Shown one piece after another: positions 29,232 to 56,525 of a stretch of DNA of 64,000 nucleotides. The position numbers and the translations under genes are program-made. The DNA lies in the NCBI GenBank assembly GCA_035995545.1, contig DASYKI010000003.1, positions 540 to 64,539 on the forward strand. The letters run 5' to 3'. The stretch comes from Candidatus Dormiibacterota bacterium. Its GTDB lineage: Bacteria > Chloroflexota > Dormibacteria > Aeolococcales > Aeolococcaceae. The notes under the pieces are model-generated. The model saw only the letters and a list, made by a program, of their open reading frames with translations. It had not been told where the DNA came from and made no database searches. How positions within the stretch are numbered: position 1 is the stretch's first letter; each line of letters begins with the position of its first letter.

Positions 29232-30203
<972 letters not shown>

Positions 30204-30213
30204 GAGCCCAACG

Positions 30214-30690
30214 GTGACCCCGCGCGAGGCGGCGGTCGCGACGGTGGAACGCGTTCTCGCGTCTCACCCCGATGTCGCGGCCCGCCGCCTCGACGGGCAC
30301 CGCTGGTCGCTGGCGCTGCCGGGAACGGTGCGCTGGAAGGTCCCCGTCCAACTCGACGTGGGCACGCGCACAACCGTCGCCATCTCCTTTCTGCTGCGCG
30401 GACCAAGGCCGCCGCACGGCGATCCGGCGGCGCTGCACCGCCTGCTGCTGCGCAAGAACCTCGCCACCCGCCGCCTCCACTTCGCCCTCGACGGCGACGA
30501 CGACGTGGTCCTGCTGGGACGCTTGCCCACCGCTGCAATCTCCGCCGAGGAGCTGGAGGCGCTGCTCGCCGAGATCCTGGTGGTCAGCGACCAGGCCTTC
30601 GAAGCGCTGGTGCACCTTGGCTACCCCGGGGTCTTCCCACCCCTGCCCGCCGTGGCGCCCCCGGGTCGGGCCGGACCGGAACGATCCTGA
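30214..30690 (+). CDS. hypothetical protein (YbjN-like, putative)
   Basis: 158 aa starting at a GTG. I see no clear motif, and the YbjN assignment is weak. Confidence 0.35.
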   Translation: MTPREAAVATVERVLASHPDVAARRLDGHRWSLALPGTVRWKVPVQLDVGTRTTVAISFLLRGPRPPHGDPAALHRLLLRKNLATRRLHFALDGDDDVVLLGRLPTAAISAEELEALLAEILVVSDQAFEALVHLGYPGVFPPLPAVAPPGRAGPERS

Positions 30691-30718
30691 CAAACAAGTA
30701 ACGCCCCCGTCGCGCCAC

Positions 30719-32419: not shown

Positions 32420-33114
32420 CAGGTGCGGGCAAGACCATCCTCATCGTCGAGGACGACCAGCCATCCAGGGAGGTCGTCCGGCTCGCCTGCCAGGCCCAGA
32501 ACCACACCCTGATCGAGGCCACCACCGGCAGCGACGGCCTGACCATGGCCCGCGAGGGGAACCCCGACCTGATCATCCTCGACGTCAACCTGCCCGGAAT
32601 GAGCGGTTTGGACGTCTGCCGCCGGCTCCGATCCGAGGGGTCGCGGGTGCCGATCATCATGCTCACCGCCAAGTCGGACACCATCGACGTGGTGGTCGGC
32701 CTGGAGCTCGGCGCCGACGACTATGTGACCAAGCCCTTCGAGGTGCGCGAGCTGATGGCTCGCATCGGCGCCCACCTGCGCCGCAGCGAGATCAGCGCCC
32801 AGGAGGCCCCCCGCGACCGCTTCGAGTTCCCCGGCCTGATCATCGACCTGGGCCGCCGCCAGGTCTTCCGCGACGGCGAGGAGGTCCTGCTCACCCTCAC
32901 CGAGTTCAACCTGCTGGCCCTTCTGGCCTCCCGTCCCGGCCAGGTGATGAGCCGCGGCGAGCTGCTCCGCCGGGTCTGGGGCTACGAGGTGGAGATCGAG
33001 ACCCGCACCGTGGACGCCCACGTCTACCGGCTGCGGCGCAAGATCGAGCCCGAGGCGGAGAAGCCGACCTACATCCACAGCGTCCCGGGCATCGGGTACA
33101 GGTTCGCGGGCTAA
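32416..33114 (+). CDS. OmpR-family response regulator (REC + winged-helix)
   Basis: The receiver domain (ILIVEDD ... LIILDVNLPGMSG) is followed by a trans_reg_C domain (RVWGYEVEIETRTVDAHVYRLRRKI). The start overlaps the kinase stop. Confidence 0.9.
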   Translation: MTGAGKTILIVEDDQPSREVVRLACQAQNHTLIEATTGSDGLTMAREGNPDLIILDVNLPGMSGLDVCRRLRSEGSRVPIIMLTAKSDTIDVVVGLELGADDYVTKPFEVRELMARIGAHLRRSEISAQEAPRDRFEFPGLIIDLGRRQVFRDGEEVLLTLTEFNLLALLASRPGQVMSRGELLRRVWGYEVEIETRTVDAHVYRLRRKIEPEAEKPTYIHSVPGIGYRFAG

Positions 33115-33182: not shown

Positions 33183-33881
33183 ATGCATGCGGCCCCCCCG
33201 GGCCGCCATGGCAACTCCCCCCACCCGGCACCCCCCGACGTTTCCCCCCTGTGCGAGCACGCCCGTGCCCGCCGCCGTCGCAGCCAACGCCGCGGCCAGA
33301 GCCTGGTCGAGTTCGCCCTGGTGGCGCCGATCTTCGTGCTCGCGGTGTTCGCCATGGTCGATGGCGGGCTCCTGCTCTACTCGATCAACACCGTGGACCA
33401 GGCGGCGACGGTGGGCAGCAACACCCTGGCCGCGGCCGGGCGCGACTCGCTCGCCGACATCACCGCCGTGCAGCGCATGGCCGGCGCCGGCCTGGGGGCG
33501 ACCTCGCTGGTCACCGTCACCGAGATCGACGTGATGCAGCTGGCCGACAACCCCGCGGGCGGCTTCCAGACCAACCCCGACGGCTCGCCGAAGATCCAGA
33601 CCGGCTGCGCCGGCGGACCCAACGGCGGCCAGTGCGTCGACCGCTACTCCTACACCGGTGGCGGCAGCACGCCGGCGGTGACGGTGATCAACGGCACCTG
33701 TCCCGCGGCGCAGGACGCGTCGCAGTGCCCGCCCTGGCCGCCGTCGGCGCGCAACGTCGCCAACGGGACCAGCTCGTTTGTCGGCCTGAAGATCCTCTAC
33801 ACCTACCGGTACTTCACCGGGATCGCGGCGACGCTGTCGCTGACGGCCACCAAGACGTTCCGCCTGGAGCCGCAGACGTGA
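33183..33881 (+). CDS. TadE-like Flp-pilus minor pilin / pseudopilin
   Basis: The TadE N-terminal motif GQSLVEFALVAPIFVLAVFAMVDGG is preceded by a Pro-rich 38-aa extension that is encoded by four C6-C7 tracts. The start is uncertain. Confidence 0.6.
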   Translation: MHAAPPGRHGNSPHPAPPDVSPLCEHARARRRRSQRRGQSLVEFALVAPIFVLAVFAMVDGGLLLYSINTVDQAATVGSNTLAAAGRDSLADITAVQRMAGAGLGATSLVTVTEIDVMQLADNPAGGFQTNPDGSPKIQTGCAGGPNGGQCVDRYSYTGGGSTPAVTVINGTCPAAQDASQCPPWPPSARNVANGTSSFVGLKILYTYRYFTGIAATLSLTATKTFRLEPQT

Positions 33882-34543
33882 TGTCCCGTCCGGATGTGCG
33901 CAGGACATCGGCGCGCGGCCAGTCCACCGTCGAGCTGCTGCTGGTGCTCCCCGTCGTGCTGCTGCTCATGTTCGGCGTCTACACCGCGGCCGGATTCATC
34001 GCCGACCGGCAGGTCGCCGGGCAGGCGGTGCGCGCCGGCGCCCGGCTCGGCGCCGAGATGGGCAGCAACCAGTTCCACACCGGCCAGGCCGCCTACCCCG
34101 GCACCTGCATGGGCAGCGGCACCGACCCCTGCATCGTCGACAACGCGATGGTCACCAGCGTGGTCACCATCGCCCGCAACCTGAGCAACGTGCTCAGCGT
34201 CGACGAGATCGACATCTACTCGCCCTGCGCGATCGCCGGTGGCACCTGCAGCACGTCGACGCAGGCGTGCCCGACCACGCTCAGCGGTCTCGACGGGCGC
34301 CTTCAGTCCGGCGACCCGGTGGACGTGTACAAGCCCAACGCGCAGGGCAAGTGGGTGCTCACCCAACCGGCCGGCGCCACCCAGTACACGCTCGACCTGC
34401 GCAGGCAGAACCATCCCAGCGAGTCGCTGATCGCGGTGCGACTCGCCTACACCTTCAAGGCGTCGGCACCGATGAGCTTCTTCAACATGCAGACGTCCGA
34501 ATACGCCGCCATGTGCCTGGCGCCCAACGCCTCGGGAGGCTGA
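33881..34543 (+). CDS. TadE-like Flp-pilus assembly protein
   Basis: The ATG overlaps the previous stop (TGATG). The N-terminal motif reads GQSTVELLLVLPVVLLLMFGV. Confidence 0.6.
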   Translation: MSRPDVRRTSARGQSTVELLLVLPVVLLLMFGVYTAAGFIADRQVAGQAVRAGARLGAEMGSNQFHTGQAAYPGTCMGSGTDPCIVDNAMVTSVVTIARNLSNVLSVDEIDIYSPCAIAGGTCSTSTQACPTTLSGLDGRLQSGDPVDVYKPNAQGKWVLTQPAGATQYTLDLRRQNHPSESLIAVRLAYTFKASAPMSFFNMQTSEYAAMCLAPNASGG

Positions 34544-34544
34544 G

Positions 34545-36419
34545 ATGCACGCACGACGTCGCCGCGCTTGGCGCGGCCAGGCAGGACAGGTCATGGTGGT
34601 CTTCGCACTGCTTGCCACCGTGCTGTTCGCCGTCGCCGGCCTCGCCGTCGACGCCGGCATCAGCTATCTCACCGACAACCAGGCGGAGCGCGCCGCCGCC
34701 GCCGGTGCGCTCGCCGGCGTGCCCTACATGCCCAACGGTTGGGGCAGCAGTGCCGACGGCGCCGCCAGGTCCGCGTCGGCGCGCAACGGCTTCGCCGACG
34801 GCGGCACCCGCAACGGGCACAGCGTCGCGGTGTCGCTGGCGCGCTATCCCGCCGGCTGCGGCAGCGTCGCCTCGCCGTGCGACTCCAACAAGCTCACCGT
34901 GTCGGTGACCTCGTGGGCGCAGACCAGCTTCCTGCGCATGCTCGGCTTCGGCGATCACCAGGTCGTGGCCAGCGCCACCGCCTTCTACCTGCCGCCGATC
35001 GCGCTCGGCCAGCCCGGCGCGCAGCTGGGCAGCAGCGTCGACGCCCTGGGCAGCGCCAACAACTACTACATCCTGCGCCACGAGGGCTACGGCAACGACC
35101 GCCAGGAGGGCGACGCCTTCACCCCCACCACCACGCAGCAGACCTTCAACTCCTCGAACGGCTGCGATGTCACCGAGAACACCGCGGGATACGGCAGCTC
35201 CACCGACTCGCACTCGCTGAGCGCGTCGGCGGGGACCGACGTGTCGAGCATGCCGGCACCGTACAACCCGCTGCCCTCACGCGGCGGCTACAACTACGCG
35301 ATCACGGTGCCGAGCACCGTCGCGCAGGCGTCGGTGCGTGTCTACAACCCGGCGTTCGCGCCCGACGGTGGCTACAACCCCAACCCCAATTACGGAACGT
35401 CGAGCAACTACACCCTGCACGAGCAGGACGGCAGCTTCTCCGGCAACGGCTCGACGTCGCAGTACTCGGCGCTGGAGTACACCATCTTCAAGGTGGTCGA
35501 CGTCTTCGACCACACCCAGGACGTGCCGCTGTCGCAGGTGGTCGTCGATCCCATCAACGCCGACCCCAACAACAGCAGCTACACCGACGTCAGCAACGGG
35601 CAGAGCATCCCCGCGTCGGTGGTGAGCTACGCGTACCACGGCTGGGTCGACGTCGGCAATCCCAGCTCGACGTCGTGGACCGCGGGCGGCAAGACCTACA
35701 AGCTGATCAACGTGCTGCAGTCGCTGAGCGGCGGGACGCTGGGACCGGGCAACTACCGGCTGCGCGTCGACATGCTCGACTACAAGGGGCGGCGTCCCAC
35801 CGAGGACGTCGGTGCCCTGCCCTGCTCGCGCGCGCACAAGGGCTACGCGCTGCAGCTGTCCACACCCAGGTCGGGCGGCGGCTACCAGAGCTGCAACGAC
35901 CCCGCCTGCAACGTCAGCGGCATCGGCGAGATGGCCGTCTACACGCCCATCGTCAGCAGCGGGGGGTCGTTCTCGCTGCCGGTCTTCCAGCTCTCCAAGG
36001 ACTACCGCGCCAAGACGGTGAACTTCTTCATCTTCGACCCCGGCGACGTCAGCGGCTCCAACACGCTGACGGTGGTCAACCCCGACACCGGCGCGGTGCT
36101 CACCGCCGACCCCGGCGCCGCGGTGAACATCTACGACCTCGGCGTCAGCCGCAACGTCACGCCGACGCCGTCGATGCTGGTCAACACCCTGTACCCCGGC
36201 TCGCAGCCCAGCACCACCAGGGCCAGCCTGCAGACAGTCGTCAACGGCAGCAACGTCTACAACAGCCACTGGCTGCTCTTCGAGCTGCCCATCCCCGCGA
36301 CGTACAACGGCGGCGCGGGCAGCTACTGGACACTGCAGTACACCGTCAACGGCCAGGCCGGCGACACCGTGACCCTCGCCGTCAGCTACGGCGGGTCGGC
36401 GGTGCACCTGATCAACTAG
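34545..36419 (+). CDS. TadG-like (Tad pilus-assembly) large pseudopilin; the Ser/Thr/Asn/Gly-rich beta region has no further recognisable domain
   Basis: 624 aa. The N-terminus GQAGQVMVVFALLATVLFAVAGLAVDAG is the Tad N-terminal motif. The remainder is low-complexity beta-rich. Confidence 0.55.
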   Translation: MHARRRRAWRGQAGQVMVVFALLATVLFAVAGLAVDAGISYLTDNQAERAAAAGALAGVPYMPNGWGSSADGAARSASARNGFADGGTRNGHSVAVSLARYPAGCGSVASPCDSNKLTVSVTSWAQTSFLRMLGFGDHQVVASATAFYLPPIALGQPGAQLGSSVDALGSANNYYILRHEGYGNDRQEGDAFTPTTTQQTFNSSNGCDVTENTAGYGSSTDSHSLSASAGTDVSSMPAPYNPLPSRGGYNYAITVPSTVAQASVRVYNPAFAPDGGYNPNPNYGTSSNYTLHEQDGSFSGNGSTSQYSALEYTIFKVVDVFDHTQDVPLSQVVVDPINADPNNSSYTDVSNGQSIPASVVSYAYHGWVDVGNPSSTSWTAGGKTYKLINVLQSLSGGTLGPGNYRLRVDMLDYKGRRPTEDVGALPCSRAHKGYALQLSTPRSGGGYQSCNDPACNVSGIGEMAVYTPIVSSGGSFSLPVFQLSKDYRAKTVNFFIFDPGDVSGSNTLTVVNPDTGAVLTADPGAAVNIYDLGVSRNVTPTPSMLVNTLYPGSQPSTTRASLQTVVNGSNVYNSHWLLFELPIPATYNGGAGSYWTLQYTVNGQAGDTVTLAVSYGGSAVHLIN

Positions 36420-37101: not shown

Positions 37102-37506
37102 TCAGACGGTGTCGGGCCTGAGCACCATCAGCCGCACCCGCGATGCGGCCAGGTCGCGCCCGGCGGAGTCGCGGATGCTCACCTGCCAGGCCTGGGTGCG
37201 CCGCCCGGCGTGCAGCGGGGTGGCCTCGAAGATCACCTCGGTGCCGGCGCCGGCGGCGCGCAGGAAGGTGGTGTGGTTCTCCAGCCCGACGGCCCCGTTC
37301 TCGGGGTCGTACTGCATCCCGTTGAGATGGGCGCCGAAGCTGGCCGCCGATTCGGCGACCGCGCAGTAGACGCCGCCGTGGACGATCCCGTAGGGCTGGA
37401 GGTGGCGCTCGTCGATGACCAGGCGGGCGACCACGCGGGTGGGAGAGAGCTCGTCCCAGGTCACCCCCAGGAGGTCGTTGAACCCGCCCTGGTCCTGGTT
37501 CTCCAC
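37102..37506 (-). CDS. hotdog-fold acyl-CoA thioesterase (PaaI/YbgC-like)
   Basis: 134 aa from the GTG start. The motif IVHGGVYCAVAESAASFGA is typical of 4HBT/PaaI thioesterases. The longer track ORF overlaps the upstream gene. Confidence 0.7.
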   Translation of the reverse strand: MENQDQGGFNDLLGVTWDELSPTRVVARLVIDERHLQPYGIVHGGVYCAVAESAASFGAHLNGMQYDPENGAVGLENHTTFLRAAGAGTEVIFEATPLHAGRRTQAWQVSIRDSAGRDLAASRVRLMVLRPDTV

Positions 37507-37523
37507 GCTGGCAGCCCCCGGCC

Positions 37524-38417
37524 TCAGTAGATGAAGCCGATCAGGTCGATGCTGCTGCTGGTCACCGTGCGGGTGTCGTAGACGCCGAGGCCGCGGACGT
37601 TCATCTCCGAGATCACGAAGCTGCCGTCGGGGTTGACCTTCTCGACGTAGGCGACGTGGCCCACCCAGCTGCCCCACATCACCACGATGGCGCCGGCCAC
37701 CGGGGTGTGCCCCTCGGGCCGCCCGGCGCCGCGGGCGTTGCGGTACCACATCCAGGCGTCGCCGTTCCAGCTCACATGGCGCTTGGTCGACACGTAGTAG
37801 GTGCACTGGCCCCAGGGGAAGCCGGAGTTGGAGGAGCCGCCGTGCTGGTACTCCGCCGCGGGCACGGCGGGGCGGTTGTTGGCGTTGGGGACCACCCAGC
37901 CGGAGGCGATGGCCTCGCCGCCGGCCGCCTGCGCGGGGATCTGCAGCCAGCTTCCCGCGGCCTGCGGCGTGTCGGCGCGCAGCGCGTTGTAGTCCAGGAT
38001 GATCCGGGGATCGAGCCCCAGGCGGGCGGCGAAGCTGCTCGGCTTCTCGTTGGCACGCACCTGGACCAGGGCGCCGGGGCCGGGCGGGACCAGCAGCGCC
38101 GCGCCGGTGGCGGGCTCGCTGTCCTCGGGCAGCTGGTTGGCCCAGCGCATGGCGGCGGCGTCGGCATGGAAGGACGCGGCCAGGGCCGCCAGGGTGTCGC
38201 CCTTGTTGACCACGATGGTCTGTGCCGGGCGCTGTGGAATCGACGGGGCCGAAGCGCCGCGCTCGATGGTGGCGCCGCTGCGCGAGGCGTCATCTCCGGC
38301 CGATGCCAGGGCTGGCAGCGACGGGAGGTGGCTCACCGCATGTGGCACGAGCATCGGCAGCGTCAGGGCGGCCATCACCACGAAGCCGTGTCGCAGGAAT
38401 CGCTCACGCACCGCCAA
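37524..38417 (-). CDS. secreted LysM + CHAP domain peptidoglycan hydrolase
   Basis: A signal peptide is followed by a LysM domain (IVVNKGDTLAALAASF). The C-terminal CHAP domain has catalytic Cys in GQCTYYV and His in GHVAYVE. Confidence 0.8.
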   Translation of the reverse strand: MAVRERFLRHGFVVMAALTLPMLVPHAVSHLPSLPALASAGDDASRSGATIERGASAPSIPQRPAQTIVVNKGDTLAALAASFHADAAAMRWANQLPEDSEPATGAALLVPPGPGALVQVRANEKPSSFAARLGLDPRIILDYNALRADTPQAAGSWLQIPAQAAGGEAIASGWVVPNANNRPAVPAAEYQHGGSSNSGFPWGQCTYYVSTKRHVSWNGDAWMWYRNARGAGRPEGHTPVAGAIVVMWGSWVGHVAYVEKVNPDGSFVISEMNVRGLGVYDTRTVTSSSIDLIGFIY

Positions 38418-38697: not shown

Positions 38698-40742
38698 TGT
38701 ACTCCCGCATCTACGTGCCGCTGGACAACTCGGATCACTCCAACGCCTGCGTCGAGGTCGCCGTCGCCCTCGCCCAGGCCTTCGGGGCGAGCTGCACCGG
38801 CAGCCACGTGTACGCCGCGCGCATGCACGACTACCGCTTCAAGCAGATGGAGTACACCCTCCCCGAGGAGTACCAGGACGAGGCCGAGCTGCTCCGCCAG
38901 CGCCGCATCCACGACTCGCTGATCACCACCGGCCTGCAGCTGATCAGCGACTCCTACACCGACGTGATGCGCTACCGCTGCCTGGAGAAGGGCGTCCCCT
39001 TCGAGGCGCGGGCCATCGACGGCAAGAACTGGGAGGAGCTGGTCCGCGACGTCCGCGGCGGGGACTGGGACCTGGTGGTGATGGGGGCGCTGGGCATGGG
39101 CGCGGTCAAGGAGTCGCGCCTGGGGAGCGTCACCGACCGCGTCGTGCGGCGGCTGCGCACCGACACGCTGGTGGTGCGCCGCACCGGCGACGACGCGATG
39201 TCGGGCGACATCGTCGTCGCCGTCGACGGCTCGCCGCAGTCGTTCGGGGGCCTGCTGACCGCGCTGTCGCTGGGCAAGGCGCTGGGCAAGCGGGTACAGG
39301 CGGTGGCCGTCTACGACCCCTACCTGCACTACGCGGTCTTCAACTCCATCGTCGACGTGCTCAGTGAGAAGGCGAGCAAGGTCTTCCGCTTCAAGGAGCA
39401 GGAGGCGCTGCACGAGGAGATCATCGACACCGGGCTGGCCAAGATCTACGAGTCGCACCTCGAGGTGGCGCGCGCGGTCGCCGCGGAGCAGGGCGTCGAC
39501 ATGCCCATCACGCTCCTCGACGGCAAGGCCTTCGAGCAGGTGTCACGGTTCGTACGCGATGTGAGGCCGTGGCTGCTGGTGTGCGGGCGCATCGGGGTGC
39601 ATTCCGACGATGCCATGGACCTGGGCAGCAACACCGACCAGCTGGTGCGGCTGGTCGACTGCGATGTGCTGGTCAGCTCGCGCACGCACGTGCCGCCCAT
39701 CGACGTGCGGGCGGACGCCGCGGTGGTGTGGACGCCGGAGGCGGAGACACGCATGGCGCGGGTCCCGGTGGCTGCGCGCGGCATCGCGCGGACGGCGGTG
39801 CTGCGCTGGTGCACCGAGCGGGGGCATAGCGTGGTGTCGTCGGGCGACGTCGAGTCGGCGCTGGACGAGCTGATGCCCTACCAGCGGGTGATGCGGCGCA
39901 TCGGCGAGGTTGCCTCGACGCTGGAGCGCGCTGAGCAGGCGATGCTGGAGGAGCCGCCTGTCGTGCAGGCGCGGGCAGTGTGTCGCGTGTGCGGGTACGC
40001 GGCCAGCAGCGAAACTCCTGTGGAGTGCCCTGTGTGCGGGGGGGCTGCGTCGTCGTTCGAGCGGATCGATGCGGCGCTGCTGCTCGCCGACGCCGCCGTC
40101 GAAGGCGATGCGGCGGAGGTGGGGTTCGACGGGCACAAGCTGGGCTGGACCATGGAGGCGCGCACGCTGCTGCACGAGCTGCCGGCGGGGTATCTGCGGC
40201 GGCGGGTGAAGGCGATCATCGAGAAGGCGGCGCGCACGCGGCGGCTGCCGGCGATCACTCGGGAGATCGTCGAGCCCTACGTGCTGCCGGAGCTGGAGGC
40301 GCTCGACGGCCGGGGGGAACCGCATCGGGCGCCGATCGTCGGCGGTGCCGGCGGCGCGGCCGCTCCTGCCGCGGGGCGGCTGCCCTGGTCGGCTGAGGCG
40401 GAGTCTCGACTGGAGCGCATTCCTGCGGGGTTCCTGCGCAACCTGGCGCGCGAGCAGGTGGAGCGGCTTGCGCTGCAGGTGCACGCGGGGGAGGTGAGTG
40501 CGCTGCACGTCGAGGCCGGCATCGCCGAGGCACGCGCGCAGATGCAGGCCGCGCTGCGCGGCCCCGGGGACGCTGTCGATGCCGGCGCGAGCGCCGGGTG
40601 TCCGGTGCACCGCAGTGATTCCGCGCCCGTGCCGCAGGCGCCGCCGTCCAACGGCGAGTGCCCGGTGCATCCCCTCAACGAAGTGACGGCCGGCGTCGTC
40701 GAGGCCCTGGGCAAGAAGTCCGCCCACGAGCAGCCCGTCTGA
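38698..40742 (+). CDS. multidomain protein: tandem universal stress protein (UspA) domains + rubredoxin-like zinc ribbon + two PCP_red-like (protochlorophyllide-reductase BchB C-terminal-like) segments + C-terminal CPVH repeats
   Basis: Usp 1 spans MYSRIYVPLDNSDHS ... GMGAVKESRLGSVTDRVVRRLRTDTLVVR. Usp 2 runs to DQLVRLVDCDVLVSS. The zinc ribbon reads CRVCGYAASSETPVECPVCGG. Repeated helical segments read LPAGYLRRRVKAIIEKAA and IPAGFLRNLAREQVERLA. The C-terminus has GCPVHRSD and ECPVHPLNE. Confidence 0.7.
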
Positions 40743-40755: not shown

Positions 40756-42030
40756 GTGCCAGCTCCGCTAGGTCTCAACGTCTCCCTCCCGAATTGGCCG
40801 GCCATCGGCAACCAGATCCCGGTGGCCGTGATGTTCACCCTGCACATCGTCATCGCGGAGTTCAGCCTCGGCGCCATCACCCTGGCGGTGGGCATGGAGA
40901 CGATCGGCCTGCGCACCGGCAACGAGTGGCACATGCGCTACGCGCGCGCCATCGCCAACGCGTACTACCTGGTCTTCAGCCTGGGCGCCACCTTCGCGGT
41001 GTTCGCCGTCACGGCCATCATCGGGCTCTGGGGCGCGACCTGGGGAGTGCTGCTCAACCGCTTCTTCCTGCTCTTCGCCATCGCCTTCGGGCTGTTCCTG
41101 ATCCTGCTTCCGCTGCTGGTCCTGTACCGCAACAGCTTCGGCAAGATGGCGCCGCGCCGGCACGCCATGCTGGGGTGGGCGGTGTGGTTCTGGCAGACGG
41201 CGTTCATGGTGCTCATCGTCGAGCTCGACGCCTACCTCATCGACCCGGCGCACAGCGGCATCTTGGGCGGCATGGCCAACCCGCCGTACGTGCCGCTGCT
41301 GCTGCACCGCCTGGTCGGCAACGTGTCCTGGACGGCTTTGTTCCTCGCCGGTTTCGCGGTGCTGCGCATGGCGCGCAGGACCGACCTGCGCGAGCGCGCC
41401 TTCCAGTCCTGGGCGGCGCGGCTCAACCTGCGCATCGGCCTGGCCACGGCGATCGCCATGCCGCTGCTCGGCTTCGCGCTGATGGAGGTGCTGCGCACCT
41501 CGGTGCCGGGGTACTTCGACAACCTGGTGCGCGGCGACGCCTCCTACCTGTTCGTCATCCAGGCCGCGGCGCTCGGCGTGCTCTTCGTCAGCGCCAACCT
41601 GGCGCTGGCCGGCGAGGTGGTGCGCGAGCGCCGCGCCGGCCTCTTCAGCCGCGTCTGCGTCGGCGTGGCGGTGATCGGGTTCACCGTCGGCATGCTGCCC
41701 GGCGCAGTGCTCAACGGCGGCACCTTCTGGATCCGCTACGCGGGCATCGGCATCGGACTGCTGGTCACCGTTGCACACCTGCTGGCACGCAGTGCGCCGC
41801 TGCACCCCGCGCCGGTGTACCAGCCCGCGCCCGGCGCCTACGCGGTGCTGCCCTACAGCACGTCGTCGGTGGCGCGGCGCGCGCTGGTGGTCTGCGGCCT
41901 GGTGGCGGTCTCGCTGTCGCTCTACATGGGAGTGATGAAGGAGGAGGCGCGCGGCGCCTATGTGATCAACGGCGAGCTGACCCAGCAGGACGCGCACGGG
42001 CAGTGGAACCCGCAGGGGATCTACCCGTGA
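40756..42030 (+). CDS. cytochrome bd ubiquinol oxidase subunit I-like membrane protein (CydA-like, apparently no Q-loop), paralog 1
   Basis: 424 aa. Helix 1 reads LHIVIAEFSLGAITLAVGMETIGL, which matches the CydA pattern: a heme His, then about 17 residues, then ME.T. Multiple TM helices are present. It starts 14 bp after the previous gene. Confidence 0.65.
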   Translation: MPAPLGLNVSLPNWPAIGNQIPVAVMFTLHIVIAEFSLGAITLAVGMETIGLRTGNEWHMRYARAIANAYYLVFSLGATFAVFAVTAIIGLWGATWGVLLNRFFLLFAIAFGLFLILLPLLVLYRNSFGKMAPRRHAMLGWAVWFWQTAFMVLIVELDAYLIDPAHSGILGGMANPPYVPLLLHRLVGNVSWTALFLAGFAVLRMARRTDLRERAFQSWAARLNLRIGLATAIAMPLLGFALMEVLRTSVPGYFDNLVRGDASYLFVIQAAALGVLFVSANLALAGEVVRERRAGLFSRVCVGVAVIGFTVGMLPGAVLNGGTFWIRYAGIGIGLLVTVAHLLARSAPLHPAPVYQPAPGAYAVLPYSTSSVARRALVVCGLVAVSLSLYMGVMKEEARGAYVINGELTQQDAHGQWNPQGIYP

Positions 42031-42293
42031 CCGCCTTCCTCGTCCCCCTGCTGCGCGACTCCGACTTTCAGATGGCCTGGTACATCTCCGCCGTTCTCTT
42101 CGCCGGGATCGTGCTGGTCGTCTGGGCGGCGTGGCTGGTGCTGCGCCACCTGCGCGTCATCTGGCGGCGCGGCGATCACGGCCTGGCCGCGGTGCTCGCC
42201 GCCGCAACCACGGTGGCTCTGCTGATGTTCTCGTCGATGCTGGTCACCGTCGCCGTGGCGCTGTGGCCGACGGCGACCACCGGGGGCGGCTGA
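42027..42293 (+). CDS. small two-TM membrane protein, unknown function
   Basis: A GTG overlaps the upstream stop. It has two hydrophobic helices. The coding call is tentative. Confidence 0.35.
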   Translation: MTAFLVPLLRDSDFQMAWYISAVLFAGIVLVVWAAWLVLRHLRVIWRRGDHGLAAVLAAATTVALLMFSSMLVTVAVALWPTATTGGG

Positions 42294-42296
42294 GCC

Positions 42297-42797
42297 ATGT
42301 CGCTGATGTCGCGGCGCCGCTTCCTCACCCGGATGACCAACCTGGGCGCGGGGACCATCACCCTGATGCTGTCGATCCCCGCCATCGGTTTCCTGGTCAG
42401 CCCGCTGTTCCAGAAGCGCAAGGTCAGCTGGATCCGCGTCGGCGAGATCGACACCGTCCCGGTGGGGCTGCCGACTCCCTTCGTGGTGGCCATGCCGGTC
42501 GGCGAAGGTCCGGCCACGCCGCCGGTGCAGCGCGTCGTCTACGTGGTGAAGATGACCAGCGGCGAGCTGCTCGCCTTCTCCAACACCTGCACCCACATGC
42601 AGTGCAACGTGCACTGGGATCCGGCGCTCGGCCAGTACCTCTGCCCCTGCCACGGCGGGCTCTACGACATCCGCGGCAACAACATCGGCGGACCGCCGCC
42701 GTCGCCGCTGCCCGAGTGGATCCATCGCACCTACGTCGACCCCGGCACCGGCCGCACCGTGCTCGAAGTCCAGAACCAGTTCAACGAGAGCATCTGA
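42297..42797 (+). CDS. Rieske [2Fe-2S] iron-sulfur protein with a Tat signal
   Basis: The twin-arginine motif reads SRRRFLT. The Rieske boxes are CTHMQC and CPCHGG. Confidence 0.9.
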   Translation: MSLMSRRRFLTRMTNLGAGTITLMLSIPAIGFLVSPLFQKRKVSWIRVGEIDTVPVGLPTPFVVAMPVGEGPATPPVQRVVYVVKMTSGELLAFSNTCTHMQCNVHWDPALGQYLCPCHGGLYDIRGNNIGGPPPSPLPEWIHRTYVDPGTGRTVLEVQNQFNESI

Positions 42798-42798
42798 C

Positions 42799-43998
42799 GT
42801 GCTGCGCCTGGTCACCCGTCCCATGTCGCGGCGCATGCGCAACGCGTACCGGTGGTTCGACGAGCGCACGGGGAGCACCGAGCTGCTCCACAAGGGCCTG
42901 TACGAGGCGGTCCCCGAGAAGGGAGGCTGGGCCTACACGCTGGGCAGCGCGACGCTGGTGCTCATCCTGCTGCAGCTCTTCACCGGCATCTTCCTGCTGC
43001 TGGTGTACTCGCCGTCGTTCGCGGAGGGCTGGTCGACGCTGAAGTTCCTGCAGGACAGCGACCGCTTCGGCTCGTGGGTGCGTGGCATGCACCTGTGGGG
43101 CGCGTACGTGCTCATCCTGGTGATCGGCCTGCACATGCTGCGCACCTTCTTCAGCGCCTCGTACAAACGGCCGCGCGAGCTCAACTGGGTGACCGGCGCG
43201 ATCCTCTTCTTCCTGGTCATGGGGCTGGCCATCACGGGGGCCATGCTGCCCATGGACCAGGCGGCCTACTGGACGCTGGTGGTGGTGACCAACATCCCCC
43301 ACTACATCCCCTTCCTCGGCGACGGCATGCGCCAGCTCTGGCGCGGCAGCAGCGACTTCGTCGGCCAGGTGTCGCTGACGCGCACCTTCGCCATCCACAT
43401 CTGGGTGCTGCCGTTCCTCATGTTCACCTTCATCGGCGCGCACCTCTACCTGCTGCGCCGCCACGGCGAGTTCGGTTCGTGGGTGAACTACCCGACCGCG
43501 AGCACCGACCCCGAGCGCGCGGAGCACGAGCTGGGCGAGCGCATCCGCAACGCCGAGCCGCCCTATCCGGCGCGGCGCATCGAGCGGCAGTGGTCGGTGC
43601 CGCGCACCACCGTCGAGTTCTTCCCCACCCAGCTCTTCAAGGACACGGCGGTCAGCCTGCTCTTCATCACCATCATCTTCGTCTTCGGCTACCTGGTGGG
43701 TGCACCGCTCAGCGAGCAGGCCAACCCGGCGACGCTCACCTACGTGCCCACGCCGGAGTGGTTCTTCCTGCCGCTCGACCAGGTGCTGGTGCTGACTCCG
43801 CAGACGTACCTGATCTTCGCCGGCGTGGTGGTGCTGATCGGCCTGGCCGCCACCTGCATGGTCCTCCTGCCCTTCCTCGATCGCTCGCACGAGCGCTCGC
43901 CGCTGCGCCGCCCCGAGGTGCTGCTGCCCGGACTCTTCCTCACCGGGCTGCTCATCCTGCTCACCGTGCTCGGCGCCAACCGGCTGTACAACCTGTGA
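42799..43998 (+). CDS. cytochrome b (b6-like N-terminal half fused to a subunit-IV-like C-terminal half)
   Basis: 399 aa with conserved His pairs in helices B and D (HMLRTFF ... HIWVLPF). It has a PEW-like region. Confidence 0.85.
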   Translation: MLRLVTRPMSRRMRNAYRWFDERTGSTELLHKGLYEAVPEKGGWAYTLGSATLVLILLQLFTGIFLLLVYSPSFAEGWSTLKFLQDSDRFGSWVRGMHLWGAYVLILVIGLHMLRTFFSASYKRPRELNWVTGAILFFLVMGLAITGAMLPMDQAAYWTLVVVTNIPHYIPFLGDGMRQLWRGSSDFVGQVSLTRTFAIHIWVLPFLMFTFIGAHLYLLRRHGEFGSWVNYPTASTDPERAEHELGERIRNAEPPYPARRIERQWSVPRTTVEFFPTQLFKDTAVSLLFITIIFVFGYLVGAPLSEQANPATLTYVPTPEWFFLPLDQVLVLTPQTYLIFAGVVVLIGLAATCMVLLPFLDRSHERSPLRRPEVLLPGLFLTGLLILLTVLGANRLYNL

Positions 43999-44008
43999 GC
44001 ACCGCACT

Positions 44009-45481
44009 GTGAACGCCGCCAGCCTCGCCGCCACAGCGCCGCTGCAGCCGGTGCCGACGTCGCTGCTCGGCGGCCAGCTCGCCGTCGCCTTCGTCGCGTT
44101 GCTGCACACGCTGATCGCCACCTTCATCACCGGGGGATCCTTCCTCGTCGCGGTCAGCGAGGGCATCAGCATCGCGCGCGGCGACGAGCGGCACGAGCGC
44201 TTCGCCGGCGGCGTGCTCAAGGCGATGGCCTACGTCTTCGGCTTCGGCTCGGCGCTGGCCATCTTCTGGGTGGTCTTCATCCTGCTCGGCATGTGGGGCA
44301 CCTTCTTCATCGCCCTGACGCGGATCACCTTCTGGCCCTTCATCTTCGAGGCCTCGCTGTTCCTCACCGAGATCGTCCTGCTCTACACGCTGTACGCGAA
44401 CTGGCAGCGCCTGCGCGCCTACCGCAAGGTGCGCTTCGGCATGGTGATCCTGCTGGCGGTGGCCTTCTGGTGGCAGCAGTTCTTCATCGACGTCGTCGCC
44501 TCGTTCATGCTCACCCCCAACGGCGGCGACACCTCGCAGCTCAACCAGATCCTCAACCCCACCGACCTGCCGCTGACCATCCACCGCACCGCGGGCAACA
44601 TCGCCTGGGCGGGCGCGATCATCGCAGCGGTGGCGGGCGTGCGCTACCTGCTGGCGCGGCGTCGCGAGCGCCGCACCTTCGTCGACGACCCACCCGCCGA
44701 ACGCAGCGTCGGTGCCATGTCGGCGACGTGGTTCCCCGAGGCCGACCGCGCCGGTGCCGCGCACGCCGCCGCGCACAGCAACGTCGCCTTCTTCGACTGG
44801 GTGGGGACGTGGGGTGCGGTGTGGGCGATCACGCTGACGATGTTCCAGCCCTGGCTGGGCTACAGCTACGCCAAGGAGATCCAGCTCCACGCCTACCCGG
44901 CGTGGTACCGCATGATGTTCGGCGACCTCAGCAACGTCTTCCTGGTGCAGATCACCCTGCTGGGCGGCATCTTCATCCTGGGCACCGTCTTCTTCTGGAG
45001 ACGCATGCGCGCCAGTGGGTCGCGCGGGACACGAACCCAGGTGGCGATGCTGGTGCTGCTGGTGCTCGCCACCCTGCTCGCCGCGGTGCCCGCGCGTTTC
45101 GGCTGGACCTACCCCGACGTCGTCGCCGCGCACCAGGATCGTCCCTGGTGGGACGGCGGCCTGCTCAACCCCATCGGCACCATGATCCCCAACAAGGTGA
45201 TCGCGCTCATCGTGATGATGGTCTGCGCGCTGGTCTCGGTGACATCGTTCGTGCGCGCCCACAGCGCGGGCGAGGTGCGCTGGGGCGACGCCACGCGGCG
45301 CAGCCAGTGGCTGCTCGTGTCGCTGGGGATGACGGTGATGTCGATGATGATCGTGATGGGCATCATCCGTGAGCACAGCCGGCAGCCCTACCTGATCCAG
45401 GGCGAGATGACCATCCAGGGGCAGCAGATCCTCAACAGCAACGGCGCGCCGGGCACCGTGCCACCCAATCCCAACCCATGA
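44009..45481 (+). CDS. cytochrome bd subunit I-like membrane protein (CydA-like), paralog 2
   Basis: 490 aa. Helix 1 (LLHTLIATFITGGSFLVAVSEGISI) parallels paralog 1. The GTG start lies 10 bp after the cyt b stop. Confidence 0.65.
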   Translation: MNAASLAATAPLQPVPTSLLGGQLAVAFVALLHTLIATFITGGSFLVAVSEGISIARGDERHERFAGGVLKAMAYVFGFGSALAIFWVVFILLGMWGTFFIALTRITFWPFIFEASLFLTEIVLLYTLYANWQRLRAYRKVRFGMVILLAVAFWWQQFFIDVVASFMLTPNGGDTSQLNQILNPTDLPLTIHRTAGNIAWAGAIIAAVAGVRYLLARRRERRTFVDDPPAERSVGAMSATWFPEADRAGAAHAAAHSNVAFFDWVGTWGAVWAITLTMFQPWLGYSYAKEIQLHAYPAWYRMMFGDLSNVFLVQITLLGGIFILGTVFFWRRMRASGSRGTRTQVAMLVLLVLATLLAAVPARFGWTYPDVVAAHQDRPWWDGGLLNPIGTMIPNKVIALIVMMVCALVSVTSFVRAHSAGEVRWGDATRRSQWLLVSLGMTVMSMMIVMGIIREHSRQPYLIQGEMTIQGQQILNSNGAPGTVPPNPNP

Positions 45482-45918
45482 GCGCTCGCGATCTCCCCCT
45501 CGGTGCCGTGGCGGTGCGCATGCACCTCTTCAGCAGCCCGTCCTCCGAGGTGGAACGGGCGCTGAAGCCACCGTGGCCCCGGTGGATGCACCGCCTCTAC
45601 GAGCTGGAGCGACTCACCGGGGCGGCCGCGCCCGAGGAGGGGGAGGTGTCGTTGAGCGCCGCGGTCAGCGCCGTGGCCACGCGGCTGCGGCACCGGCTGG
45701 AGCTGGTGGCGTGGTGCGCGGGGGCCATGGAGGAGATCGGCTGGGAGGTGAGCATGGAGGGCGACGACGTCGTCGCCGCCAAGGTCACCCTGCCGGAGCT
45801 GGCTCGTGACGAGCTGGAATTGCACGGGATCTACGGTCCGCTGGGAGCCGTGTGCGATCTCGACGAGCACGGGATGCCGCGACTCATCGAGCGCTGGGAG
45901 ACGGCGCGTGAGCGGTGA
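45478..45918 (+). CDS. hypothetical cytoplasmic protein (146 aa)
   Basis: The ATG overlaps the previous stop. No motif was recognised. Confidence 0.45.
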   Translation: MSARDLPLGAVAVRMHLFSSPSSEVERALKPPWPRWMHRLYELERLTGAAAPEEGEVSLSAAVSAVATRLRHRLELVAWCAGAMEEIGWEVSMEGDDVVAAKVTLPELARDELELHGIYGPLGAVCDLDEHGMPRLIERWETARER

Positions 45919-46303
45919 GGGATGTGCCGCTGCTGCCGCCGCCGCGCACGTGCTCGTCGTCGAGGATGAGCCGATGATCGGGCGCATCCTGGAGCACAAG
46001 CTGGTGCGCGAGGGGCACCGCATCACCTGGGCACGCGATTGCGCGGCCGCCGCGGCTGCGCTCGACGGCGGCGACGTCGACCTTGCGCTGGTGGACGTGA
46101 CGCTCGATCGCGACGGGATCGAGTTCATGTCGACGGCGGCGACGATGTCGCGGTGCGGGTGGGTGGCCATGGTGGCGGCCCGCGACGTGGCGTCGCAGCA
46201 GCGGGCGCGCGCGGCCGGGTGCGCGGCGGTGGTGATCAAGCCGTTCAAGCCGACGGCGGTGGCGGCGCTGGTGGCGCAGCTGGTTGCGGGTGCACGGGTA
46301 TGA
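45908..46303 (+). CDS. single-domain response-regulator receiver (CheY-like)
   Basis: The receiver features are HVLVVEDEPMIG ... DLALVDVTLDRDG ... VVIKPFK. The start is uncertain; it may be the GTG overlapping the upstream gene, or the internal GTG at VLVVEDE. Confidence 0.55.
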   Translation: MSGEGCAAAAAAAHVLVVEDEPMIGRILEHKLVREGHRITWARDCAAAAAALDGGDVDLALVDVTLDRDGIEFMSTAATMSRCGWVAMVAARDVASQQRARAAGCAAVVIKPFKPTAVAALVAQLVAGARV

Positions 46304-47382
46304 CCACGCTGCTGGGTCCTTCCGGCGTTCGCGCGGTGGAATCGCCGCCTGGCTTCGACGCGGCGCAGCCCTGCGCGGTCGAGGCGGCCGGCGTGGAGCG
46401 GCGCTATCGCGGTGGCCGTGGGGTGGGACCCGTCGACGTCGCCGTGGCGGCGGGCGAGGTGATGGTGCTGATGGGGCCCAACGGGGCGGGCAAGACCACG
46501 CTGCTGCGGTTGCTGGCCACCGTCGACCGGCCGCAGCGGGGGCGGGTGCTCTGGTCGGGCGGCGGTGATGCTCGCGTGGCACGGCGCAGCCTTGGGCTGG
46601 CCCTCGACGCCACGGCGGAGGAGCCGTCGCTGAGCGGGATGCAGGCGGCGTACTTCTGGTGCCGGCAGTGGGTTGCGGATCGCGGCCAGGCGGTGAGGCT
46701 GTGCGAGGAGTCCCTGCGTTGGTTCGGGCTGTGGGACGTGCGGGACGAGCCGGTGGGGGCGTACTCGTTCGGGATGCGCCGGCGTCTCGCCTTGGTGCAG
46801 GCGCTCGCACACCGGCCGCGGCTGGCGCTGCTCGACGAGCCGACGGCGGGGCTGGACCCCGCGGGGGTGTCGGCCCTGCTGGGGGAATTGGAGACGCGCT
46901 CGCTCGCGGGTTGCGCCACGGTTGTTGCCAGCAACGACCCGAACTTCGCGGCGGTCGCGGCCCATCGTGTGGCATTTCTCGCCGGCGGGCGGCTGCTGCA
47001 GTGTGCGTCGCCCGTCGATCTGCTGAATGCTGTGGGCGCGGCGCGAGTCGCGCTGCTCGATGCACCGGGCCTCGATCTCGATGCGCTGCGCGAGCTGGCC
47101 GGGGTCGAGCGCGTCGACGCCTCGGCCGGCGGCGCTGTGGTGCGGTACCGCGACCCGGCCGTCCTGCCGCGGATCGTCGCAGCGGCGGACCACCCTGGCG
47201 GCGTGCTGCGACAGGTGCGGCTGCACGAGCCCGACCTGGCGGACGCGTTTCGCGAGCTGGCGGGGCAGGAGCTGTCGCCTGATCCTTCCAGTGTCGATGC
47301 CGGCGGCCGTCGACCCGGTGGCGCAGGGGTCGTGCGTGTCGACAACGAACGCGTCTCCCGGCGTCGGAGCCGCCGCTCGTGA
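46300..47382 (+). CDS. ABC transporter ATP-binding protein (ABC-2 type)
   Basis: Walker A reads GPNGAGKTT. The signature is YSFGMRRR, and Walker B is LALLDEPTAGLD. The ATG overlaps the REC stop. Confidence 0.8.
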   Translation: MTTLLGPSGVRAVESPPGFDAAQPCAVEAAGVERRYRGGRGVGPVDVAVAAGEVMVLMGPNGAGKTTLLRLLATVDRPQRGRVLWSGGGDARVARRSLGLALDATAEEPSLSGMQAAYFWCRQWVADRGQAVRLCEESLRWFGLWDVRDEPVGAYSFGMRRRLALVQALAHRPRLALLDEPTAGLDPAGVSALLGELETRSLAGCATVVASNDPNFAAVAAHRVAFLAGGRLLQCASPVDLLNAVGAARVALLDAPGLDLDALRELAGVERVDASAGGAVVRYRDPAVLPRIVAAADHPGGVLRQVRLHEPDLADAFRELAGQELSPDPSSVDAGGRRPGGAGVVRVDNERVSRRRSRRS

Positions 47383-48134
47383 CCGTCGCCGCCGCGCCCC
47401 CACCGCAGACCGCGGCCCTGCGCCGTGTTCTTCCTGCGGGCATGTGGACGCGCGAGTGGCTGCTCACCGTGGCCCATCCCCGCTCGCTGGCCATCAAGCT
47501 GGCCATGCCCCTTGTCCTGACCGTCCCCCTGCTGGCCGGCAGGGCGCCCACCTTCTGGGCCGGCATGCTGCTGACGGTGCTGGTCGCCATGGTCGGCGCC
47601 GTCGGCTCCGGCGTCACCCTCGCCCGCGCCCGCCAGGGCAGCCTGCTCGCCCGCCTCGCCGTCGTGCCGAGACCGCCGCACCGCGTGGTGGGCGGTTGGG
47701 TCCTCGCCGCCGCCGCGGTCGACACCGTGCAGATGCTCCCCGTCGCCCTCGCGGTCGCGCTCACCGGTGCCGCGCCCGACACCGCCCTGGCCATGCTGCT
47801 CTGCATCCCCGCGGTCCTGCTCGCGACCAACGCCCTCGGCTGCGCGCTGTCTCTGCTGGCCGGTGGGCCTGGCGAGGTGCTGCTCGACGTCGTCGTGGTG
47901 CTCGCCCCGCTGCTGTTCCTCGGCGGGCTGTTCACCGGCGTCCCCCGCGACGGCTGGCGCTTCTGGGCCGCTCGCCTCGACCCTTTCGCCTACCTGCACT
48001 CCGCCTTCGTCGGCGCCCTCGGCGGCTCACCCAGCTTCGCCACGGCGGACGTCCTCGTCGCCGCCGCCGTCACGGCGACGCTGTCGCTGCTGGCCACCGC
48101 CGCCGTCGCCAGGGCGCTGCTGGCGCGCGGGTGA
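47379..48134 (+). CDS. ABC-2-type transporter permease (6 TM)
   Basis: The GTG overlaps the ATPase stop. The whole protein is hydrophobic. Confidence 0.6.
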   Translation: MTVAAAPPPQTAALRRVLPAGMWTREWLLTVAHPRSLAIKLAMPLVLTVPLLAGRAPTFWAGMLLTVLVAMVGAVGSGVTLARARQGSLLARLAVVPRPPHRVVGGWVLAAAAVDTVQMLPVALAVALTGAAPDTALAMLLCIPAVLLATNALGCALSLLAGGPGEVLLDVVVVLAPLLFLGGLFTGVPRDGWRFWAARLDPFAYLHSAFVGALGGSPSFATADVLVAAAVTATLSLLATAAVARALLARG

Positions 48135-56506: not shown

Positions 56507-56525
56507 AGGTTTCCAGACAACCGAC

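Follow-up and report, generated by a model that had tools for sequence, protein, structure and literature searches.

A probable OR-N5a/5b-type bd-like oxygen reductase encoded with a Rieske/cytochrome b module in Candidatus Dormiibacterota

The supplement of Murali, Gennis and Hemp (2021, bioRxiv 10.1101/2021.01.16.426971) sets apart a family of bd-like oxygen reductases, OR-N, that lacks the quinol site; it describes the paired proteins OR-N5a and OR-N5b as encoded with petA/petB/petD and proposes quinol as their donor. Table S3 of that work lists Dormibacterota among the carriers of OR-N, and its OR-N5 reference pair comes from Rubrobacter xylanophilus (WP_143528031.1 / WP_143528035.1), the accessions of its two reference pairs each being four apart. 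For Nitrospira, the text of Mundinger et al. (2019, PMC6606698) proposes a supercomplex of complex III with a bd-like protein. CydAA′ of the archaeon Caldivirga maquilingensis (qOR4a/qOR4b) is described as an experimentally active O2 reductase built from two CydA-superfamily paralogs and containing b hemes only. Here, we analyze a 64,000-nucleotide (nt) stretch of DNA (the window) from a Candidatus Dormiibacterota bacterium (GenBank assembly GCA_035995545.1, contig DASYKI010000003.1, positions 540 to 64,539, forward strand), in which genes for two proteins resembling cytochrome bd subunit I (CydA) flank genes for a Rieske protein and a cytochrome b. The open reading frames (ORFs) of this block were found where an earlier reading of the sequence (the original prediction) had placed them. 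On balance, we favor the view that the locus encodes, in one operon, an OR-N5a/5b-type bd-like oxygen reductase together with a menaquinol-oxidizing Rieske/b6-subunit IV module and a small subunit with two transmembrane (TM) segments, that these probably form one membrane complex, and that they act as a heme-only quinol:O2 oxidoreductase coupled to a Q cycle.

Both bd-like proteins, of 490 and 424 amino acids (aa), were matched by the Pfam profile Cyt_bd_oxida_I (PF01654) above its curated cutoff of 26.2 bits (44.7 bits, E = 8.9e-12, and 32.8 bits, E = 3.6e-8, respectively). In each case the match covered the N-terminal half only (profile positions 5 to 235); the first four helices of CydA hold the O2-reducing hemes, and this is where a match is expected for membership in the superfamily. 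NCBIfam holds no model for either protein. As proposed earlier, the two are paralogous, aligning over their full lengths with 24% identity (454 columns, E = 1e-19). The CydA helix 1 pattern of a histidine followed by an acidic residue, also part of the original prediction, was confirmed in both: H33 is followed by E51 within “VSEGIS” in the 490-aa protein and H30 by E48 within “GMETIG” in the 424-aa protein, and the spacing of 18 residues in each equals that from H19 to E37 in Escherichia coli CydA. The reported lack of a Q-loop likewise held for both proteins, in which the periplasmic link between TM6 and TM7 measures about 15 to 20 residues. Hydropathy and the helix map of the AlphaFold2 (AF2) models gave ten TM helices for each protein, and the heme c motif CxxCH, typical of OR-C subunit I, was found in neither.

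The predicted folds also point to CydA. For the 424-aa protein (predicted local distance difference test [pLDDT] score, 86; predicted template-modeling [pTM] score, 0.88), CydA chains filled the top 10 Foldseek places in the PDB (E = 1e-8 to 3e-6), with the earliest CydB chains following at E = 7e-4 to 1e-3. The model of the 490-aa protein (pLDDT, 75; pTM, 0.77) likewise had CydA chains in all top 10 places (E = 9e-7 to 2.5e-4), and no other chains matched at E ≤ 1e-3. The leading chains came from E. coli, mycobacteria, Corynebacterium, and Geobacillus; the top 10 carried a Foldseek probability of 1.00, with template-modeling scores of just 0.35 to 0.64, and no OR-N-type structure was among the PDB matches. 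By residue pattern, spacing, TM count, and operon context, we assign the 490-aa protein as probably of the OR-N5a type and the catalytic subunit, and the 424-aa protein as probably of the OR-N5b type, taking the position of CydB. They are called N5a and N5b below.

The TM5-TM6 loop of N5a holds some 40 inserted residues with a high content of Ala, Arg, and Gly (residues 220 to 257; window positions 44666 to 44779). This insert is poorly modeled (pLDDT < 50 for residues 227 to 247) and is present in the window protein and the two closest representatives in the alignment; more distant a-type relatives lack it. This loop was considered as a Q-loop and rejected on account of its place between TM5 and TM6, on the cytoplasmic side by CydA topology, its poor modeling, and its restriction to the closest relatives.

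To place the locus among its relatives, we collected 3 genome loci, 2 long contigs of metagenome-assembled genomes, and 80 metagenome loci, the metagenome scan having been run with a six-sequence alignment. Named closest relatives of the window proteins are nearly all Candidatus Dormibacterota (also spelled Dormibacteraeota). The order N5b, small ORF, Rieske, cytochrome b, N5a, all on one strand, was found in 50 of 50 loci, these being the ones whose sequence extends 3.4 kb or more upstream of N5a, and this core order is kept down to 38% identity in N5a and about 30% in N5b. Protein accessions of the a- and b-type relatives are four apart (MBJ7610635 / MBJ7610639 and MBV9101540 / MBV9101544). 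An exhaustive search of 1.84 billion representative proteins with a 41-sequence N5a profile returned 435 relatives at E ≤ 1e-3, 40 of them at E ≤ 1e-30; by this measure, the N5a family is small and well separated. A tblastn search of PLSDB plasmids with N5a gave no match.

The small ORF modifies one part of the original prediction. Bd-like proteins do flank the Rieske and cytochrome b genes as claimed, but these genes are not merely a pair, since a conserved gene for a two-TM protein (42027 to 42293) also lies inside the block. Its GTG start codon overlaps the N5b stop codon as GTGA. The gap of 250 to 360 nt between N5b and Rieske held a small ORF with at least two TM segments in 58 of 58 loci (extracted, in loci of high G+C content, by choosing the most hydrophobic frame), and these ORFs share a D/N-F/L-Q-x-x-W/F-Y motif ahead of TM1. 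Neither Pfam nor NCBIfam gave a match. Its conservation in position, hydrophobicity, and motif indicates that the small protein is a conserved fifth membrane subunit, and by analogy it may act like the CydX-type or PetG-type small subunits.

We compared the residues of N5a with those of E. coli CydA. H33 corresponds to H19 (as does H30 of N5b), an equivalence taken from a weak hhalign match (E = 0.097), a MAFFT alignment, and the shared motif. E114 and E121, within “FEASLFLTE,” correspond to E99 and E107, and their 7-residue spacing is the shorter type seen in families other than qOR1. H192, followed by R193, corresponds to H186, and E455 in “IREHSRQPY” corresponds to E445 in “AEYGRQPW.” Across 82 to 85 loci spanning 38 to 100% identity, H33 (82 of 82 loci), E114, H192-R193, H294, M303, and R454-E455-x-x-R458 are invariant in N5a. 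Table S6 of Murali et al. (2021) gives ten TM helices for the Rubrobacter OR-N5a and records H24, E104, E111, H132, Q146, H183, and E406. The spacings in the window protein and in Rubrobacter OR-N5a, respectively, are 81 versus 80 residues from H33 to E114, 7 versus 7 from E114 to E121, 21 versus 21 from E121 to residue 142, 14 versus 14 from residue 142 to the invariant Q156, 50 versus 51 from residue 142 to H192, and 263 (including the 40-residue clade-specific insert) versus 223 from H192 to E455. Q156 stands at the spacing expected for the S140 position, at which Table S6 of Murali et al. (2021) has Gln.

M303, in a short helix ahead of TM7, falls topologically in the region of E. coli M393. 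All 85 loci have this Met, as do 12 of 13 diverse a-type representatives. H294 is also invariant in the 85 loci and is not kept in more distant relatives. From this conservation and placement, M303 or H294 is a candidate sixth ligand of the low-spin (b558-like) heme.

The b-type subunit carries a different set of residues. H30 (51 of 51 loci), E48, H136, and H184 are invariant in N5b across 51 to 54 loci, and there is no E-x6-E motif, the two Glu positions being F111 and L118. For OR-N5b, Table S6 of Murali et al. (2021) records H34, A115, T122, N137, H202, and S405 (S/E/T). At the E445 position (residue 396), window-family N5b has E in 32 loci and T in 26, both covered by this S/E/T range. 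H136, invariant in 54 of 54 loci, lies near the H126 position, where Table S6 has Asn (N137), with an alignment to the reference that is approximate at this point. Given its two kept heme-type histidines, N5b may also bind heme.

Between the bd-like genes, the predicted Tat-dependent Rieske protein with CTHMQC and CPCHGG and the b6/subunit IV-type cytochrome b were both recovered, motifs and Pfam and PDB matches being in agreement. The Rieske protein has an RRRF twin-arginine translocation (Tat) motif, one TM anchor, CTHMQC at residues 98 to 103, and CPCHGG at residues 116 to 121, and it scored best against models and PDB chains of Rieske proteins of the cytochrome b6f and bc types, Synechocystis PetC3 and that of Thermus among them. 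PetC3 is a low-potential Rieske protein. The RR motif, CTHxxC, and CPCHGG-LY are 100% conserved in 55 to 61 loci; box II in particular reads CPCHGG-LY in 61 of 61, with Gly where high-potential bc1 Rieske proteins have Ser. Judged by established work on the redox tuning of Rieske proteins, this Gly suggests a cluster of lower potential, suited to menaquinol. The cytochrome b is b6-like in its N-terminal part (E = 4.8e-43 to PDB 2zt9_A) and subunit IV-like in its C-terminal part (E = 2.3e-5 in the PDB). The four heme-ligand histidines of b6 have H98, H112, H200, and H215 as their counterparts in the alignment, and H200, H215, and the PEWF motif at residues 319 to 322 are conserved in 68 to 74 loci. 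The position of b6 Cys35, which serves heme cn, is T47 here and T, S, or A in 64 loci, with Cys in none. The parts of the Qo site (Rieske and PEWF) and both b-heme sites are intact.

The window was also searched for a CydB subunit. Among its approximately 58 coding-like ORFs, scanned with Pfam, none matched PF02322 (CydB), and tblastn of E. coli CydB against the window gave nothing better than E = 1.2, in line with the earlier statement that cydB is absent from the window. CydB was also not found among the called genes of three related loci (L005, L006, and L089). At E ≤ 0.1, Pfam matched nothing in an ORF of 343 aa with seven predicted TM segments and coding-like codon bias (12271 to 13302, + strand), which overlaps the final part of another ORF, on the opposite strand (11342 to 12382), likewise unmatched. 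The 343-aa ORF was tried as a CydB candidate and rejected, there being no PF02322 match at E ≤ 0.1 and no tblastn match. By analogy, the absence of CydB most likely leaves no gap, the b-type paralog occupying the position of CydB; this would parallel the role proposed for CydA′ in archaeal CydAA′.

These results bear on the idea that N5a and N5b are CydA paralogs of the ordinary sort, with a CydB partner encoded at another place in the genome and with Rieske and cytochrome b neighbors that are coincidental. Public annotation does name such proteins “cytochrome bd-type quinol oxidase subunit 1” or “cytochrome ubiquinol oxidase subunit I,” and the DNA examined amounts to 64 kb of the genome. However, a Q-loop is missing from both proteins; searches with the family profile turned up no canonical CydA (no match in the PDB, and just 435 relatives at E ≤ 1e-3 among 1.84 billion proteins); the a/b pairing and gene order are invariant in 50 of 50 loci; and N5b, being a CydA paralog over its full length with a model that matches CydB chains as well (E = 7e-4 and weaker), could itself supply the second subunit. 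We therefore regard ordinary CydA paralogs as a very improbable explanation.

No CxxCH motif occurs in any operon protein or in any coding-like ORF of the window, which leaves no candidate for a cytochrome c1, f, or cc. More distant relatives differ in this respect. A profile search with distant a-type representatives returned just four proteins, but the gene contexts were informative. One locus (L089) has the same five-gene core followed, downstream of N5a, by a c-type cytochrome gene (Cytochrome_CBB3-like, 8159 to 8740). Another (L087, 4718 to 9131) has a Rieske gene and, between it and the bd-like gene, a diheme cytochrome c gene and is without cytochrome b. A further locus (L090), with c-type cytochromes and an EB_dh-like protein, shows the OR-N2-type context of Murali et al. 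In addition, one a-type representative (P0253) has a cytochrome c domain fused to its CydA-like C terminus, with CxxCH at residue 449.

The c-type cytochrome genes of L089 and L087, and fused C-terminal cytochrome c domains such as that of P0253, would suit an arrangement of two separate, coregulated enzymes, in which the Rieske/b module reduces a diffusible carrier (a cupredoxin or a cytochrome encoded elsewhere) and N5a/N5b is an independent oxidase fed by that carrier. Three features of the window family speak for a different organization: neither the operon nor the 64-kb window encodes a CxxCH protein; the bd-like genes bracket Rieske and cytochrome b in 50 of 50 loci, which would be unusual for mere coregulation; and loss of the Q-loop leaves N5a without a donor site of its own. 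Two separate enzymes thus seem unlikely to us.

Under the single-complex reading that we favor, gene content, residue conservation, folds, and synteny lead us to infer physical association of the subunits, direct Rieske-to-heme transfer, O2 as the acceptor, and the following stoichiometry. Cytochrome b (PEWF) and the Tat-exported Rieske protein would form the Qo site, at which quinol would be oxidized. One electron would pass from the Rieske cluster directly to the low-spin heme of N5a, with no c-type cytochrome between; this heme would be held by H192 with M303 or H294 as its sixth ligand and would lie at the periplasmic face, at the site of the lost Q-loop. The electron would move onward to the di-heme O2-reducing site of N5a (H33 and E455), with protons delivered via E114 and E121. 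The second electron would travel via hemes bL and bH to the Qi site, completing the Q cycle. N5b, with its two heme-type histidines and no proton-channel glutamates, would sit in the structural place of CydB. The net result would be a copper-free, cytochrome c-free quinol:O2 oxidoreductase moving about two charges per electron, versus one for classical bd.

Several observations weigh against this scheme. Sequence links to solved CydA structures are weak: phmmer searches of all PDB sequences with N5a and N5b, and an hmmsearch of PDB sequences with the 41-sequence N5a profile, gave no match even at E ≤ 10, and hhalign of the N5a profile reached E = 0.097 with E. coli CydA and E = 0.039 with E. 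coli CydB, a result used solely as a guide for the first five helices. The three-sequence MAFFT alignment to E. coli CydA is unreliable beyond helix 2. For this reason, the residue equivalences to E. coli CydA rest on motifs, spacing, and fold. The proton-channel positions vary: residue 121 is split between Glu (40 loci) and Gln (45 loci, including those of the 38 to 40% identity clade), so that a proton path of the E107 type is not universal, and the H126 equivalent is Arg in the window protein (R142) and in 39 loci and His in the 46 loci of that sister clade. Table S6 of Murali et al. (2021, bioRxiv 10.1101/2021.01.16.426971) records no M393 equivalent for OR-N5a. The c-type cytochrome genes of L089 and L087 show that donors vary within the wider family. 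Gene order is the one line of evidence from which cotranscription and physical association are deduced. Finally, no OR-N enzyme appears to have been purified, and O2 reduction is extrapolated from conserved ligands.

Some of these points are shared by an account in which N5a/N5b is not an O2 reductase and serves instead as a heme b module that passes electrons from the Rieske/b module to NO, H2O2, or another periplasmic substrate, or that works in reverse electron flow. No OR-N enzyme is known to have been assayed, the positions of the proton channel are variable, as described (Arg for His at residue 142; Gln at E121 in 45 of 85 loci), N5b keeps H30 and H184 so that extra hemes acting only as a wire are conceivable, and reverse flow is proposed in the text of Mundinger et al. 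(2019, PMC6606698) for some Nitrospira bd-like paralogs. The di-heme signature (H33, E455, and R-E-x-x-R-x-P-Y) and E114 are nonetheless invariant in 82 to 85 loci; the supplement of Murali et al. links this part of the superfamily to O2 reduction; and the related CydAA′ is described as experimentally active with O2. We hold an acceptor other than O2, or reverse flow, to be improbable, and O2 reduction by N5a remains the reading that we prefer.

If this reading is right, widespread uncultured soil bacteria respire O2 with one particle that can do without copper and without c-type cytochromes. With its Q cycle, the particle would separate about twice as much charge as a normal bd oxidase does, and cytochrome c maturation would not be needed. 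This would bear on energy conservation in oligotrophic soil lineages at low substrate and O2 and on how one electron-input module came to replace another in the bd superfamily. Genomes are the sole source of knowledge on the OR-N family, to which the locus adds conserved targets: the fifth small subunit, the candidate ligands M303 and H294, and the linked accessory genes. The host is uncultured; Rubrobacter carries the reference OR-N5 pair. The reading is coherent and matches an already published genome-based hypothesis, and it will hold little surprise for specialists.

The genes of the locus are listed in Table 1. The G+C content of the window is about 71%. The tightly packed run of + strand genes begins after a 250-nt intergenic stretch of lower G+C content, and its first seven genes are separated by −4 to +13 nt. 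A 13-nt gap separates the USP/PCP_red gene from the N5b gene, and the USP/PCP_red gene is the probable first gene of the operon.

Table 1. Predicted genes of the bd-like/Rieske/cytochrome b locus and its downstream neighbors, in window coordinates
Product	Coordinates	Strand	Evidence
USP (×2)/PCP_red (×3)/rubredoxin-like CxxC...CxxC knuckle protein, 691 aa	38667..40742	+	Pfam Usp 114.5, PCP_red 81.1, RUBY_RBDX 27.4 bits
OR-N5b-type CydA paralog (probable), 424 aa, 10 TM	40756..42030	+	PF01654 32.8 bits
Small 2-TM subunit (predicted), 88 aa if GTG at 42027 is used	42027..42293	+	Sequence reading, 2 TM segments, synteny
Tat-dependent Rieske [2Fe-2S] protein, 166 aa	42297..42797	+	PF00355 39.2 bits
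Fused cytochrome b6/subunit IV, 399 aa, 7 TM	42799..43998	+	PF00033 134, PF13631 125, PF00032 30 bits
OR-N5a-type CydA paralog (probable), 490 aa, 10 TM	44009..45481	+	PF01654 44.7 bits
orf146, soluble 146-aa protein without family assignment	45478..45918	+	ATGA overlap with N5a stop; synteny
Stand-alone response-regulator receiver domain, start codon uncertain	~45908..46303	+	PF00072 45.9 bits
DrrA-like ATP-binding cassette (ABC) ATPase	46300..47382	+	Pfam ABC_tran; NCBIfam DrrA 137 bits and, second best, CcmA 98 bits (each under its cutoff)
ABC-2 permease	47379..48134	+	Pfam ABC2_membrane

The genes around the five-gene core differ among clades of relatives. In the clade with at least 50% N5a identity (Dormibacterota), the USP/PCP_red gene lies upstream of N5b in 12 of the 12 loci with enough flanking sequence, and the ABC-2 pair and orf146 lie downstream in 14 of 16 loci each, orf146 following N5a. 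The 41 to 45% clade has no USP/PCP_red gene (0 of 9), no detected ABC-2 pair, and orf146 in 9 of 13 loci. In the 38 to 40% clade, USP/PCP_red is present in 14 of 16 loci, the ABC-2 pair is located between the USP/PCP_red gene and N5b in 22 of 29, and orf146 was not detected. Where it occurs, orf146 is conserved at its position in two clades with 25 to 75% identity, and neither Pfam nor NCBIfam gave a match to it. The receiver-domain gene is syntenic in the Dormibacterota-clade loci. Because the USP/PCP_red and ABC-2 genes are absent from the third clade, they are not essential parts of the core. The USP/PCP_red protein is probably accessory or regulatory, and the continued linkage of the ABC-2 pair despite its rearrangement suggests a functional tie to the module.

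In protochlorophyllide reductase subunit B, PCP_red forms the C-terminal domain and contacts the tetrapyrrole. Across the window protein and its relatives (for instance, L052 at 610 to 3126 and L084 at 2194 to 4761), the architecture combines two USP domains, three to five PCP_red domains, and a rubredoxin-like knuckle, and the protein adjoins the module in two clades, in organisms that show no sign of phototrophy in the regions read. A literature search on the PCP_red (PF08369) architecture returned nothing relevant. The C-terminal tail of the window protein holds two Cys-Pro-Val-His motifs (residues 645 to 648 and 665 to 668; window positions 40599 to 40610 and 40659 to 40670), which we take to resemble heme-regulatory CP motifs. 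Most Dormibacterota-clade homologs have one or two CPV[H/x] motifs, which do not recur in homologs of the 38 to 40% clade. We mention, as a speculation that is rather doubtful, that the USP/PCP_red protein and the DrrAB-like ABC-2 exporter might together form an undescribed set devoted to heme handling or redox sensing: by binding heme or by sensing redox state, the protein would control how the cytochrome c-free “bc-bd” supercomplex is assembled or how active it is, and the pump would carry a cofactor or reductant out of the cell, in the manner of CydDC or CcmAB for other heme enzymes. The data are compatible with this idea in that the linkage is kept in two clades despite a different position.

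Elsewhere in the window, several genes touch on the quinone pool and its electron supply. The gene at 37102 to 37530 (− strand) encodes a hotdog-fold thioesterase whose second-best NCBIfam match is MenI (72.7 bits versus a cutoff of 185). MenI is the 1,4-dihydroxy-2-naphthoyl-CoA hydrolase of menaquinone synthesis, and the match is a weak hint that the quinone is menaquinone. Genes for the beta and alpha subunits of an electron-transfer flavoprotein are followed by a GAF/histidine kinase/receiver hybrid and an OmpR-type regulator (28359 to 33114, + strand), and the window also encodes an acyl-CoA dehydrogenase (56394 to 57740) and a thiolase (23611 to 24789). The flavoprotein, dehydrogenase, and thiolase would fit fatty acid oxidation feeding the quinone pool. 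Two further regions are noted for completeness. At 33183 to 36419 (+ strand), a TadE-like protein is encoded together with a protein of 624 aa that Tad_C matches weakly, under the Pfam cutoff; both probably belong to pseudopilin or Flp-pilus assembly. At 17899 to 19725 (− strand), a 608-aa protein matches DUF6909 almost end to end (705 bits) and adjoins a NicO nickel/cobalt transporter gene (19685 to 20992).

Set beside the described systems, the window pair shares with canonical CydABX (E. coli bd-I and bd-II and the Mycobacterium tuberculosis and Geobacillus enzymes) the same fold (Foldseek E = 1e-8 to 2.5e-4), and N5a shares the heme ligands and proton-channel glutamates. In contrast to the window pair, canonical CydABX has a Q-loop, oxidizes quinol directly, includes CydB, and has 9 TM helices. 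CydAA′ is likewise a bd-type oxidase of two CydA-superfamily paralogs, whereas its CydA keeps the quinol site, oxidizes quinol directly, has 8 TM helices, and is without a Rieske/cytochrome b partner.

The Nitrospira OR-N1 and OR-N2 proteins (NIDE0901 type) resemble the window pair in being CydA-like proteins without a quinol site that are encoded beside Rieske/cytochrome b genes, and a supercomplex of complexes III and IV has been proposed for them; they differ in having 14 TM helices, several c-type cytochromes, and an NxrC/EbdC-like subunit. It is L090, not the window locus, that shows a Nitrospira-like context. With b6f and the Firmicute and actinobacterial bc complexes, the window module shares the b6-type H-x13-H and H-x14-H spacings, a PEWY-type motif within a subunit IV-like part, and a Rieske protein exported by the Tat route. 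It differs from them in having no cytochrome f, c1, or cc and no Cys for heme cn, and its oxidase partner is bd-like, not heme-copper. A quinol-oxidizing module permanently wired to a terminal oxidase is known from the actinobacterial bcc-aa3 supercomplex.

The OR-N5a/b pairs share with the window locus two 10-TM CydA paralogs without a quinol site, an a-type protein with five equivalents of E. coli residues, a b-type protein without the glutamates, and Rieske and cytochrome b genes. Unlike the OR-N5 reference, the window has petB and petD fused into one gene for a 399-aa protein, and its N5a has Arg at the H126 position, the 40-residue TM5-TM6 insert, and the conserved M303 and H294. The text and supplements of Murali et al. 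and Mundinger et al., figures aside, make no mention that we found of the conserved small subunit, the fused petB/petD, the candidate Met/His ligands, or the USP/PCP_red and ABC-2 linkage, and a literature search combining Dormibacterota, bd, and Rieske returned nothing relevant. The locus probably belongs to the OR-N5a/b kind, which is cataloged from genomes and biochemically uncharacterized. The original prediction had described it as a non-canonical quinol:acceptor oxidoreductase, akin to the bd-like oxidases of nitrite oxidizers rather than to bc1 or classical bd; the hidden Markov model matches, the CydA folds, and the gene order in 50 of 50 loci agree with that description, an idea already published for such gene clusters (Murali et al., 2021; Mundinger et al., 2019).

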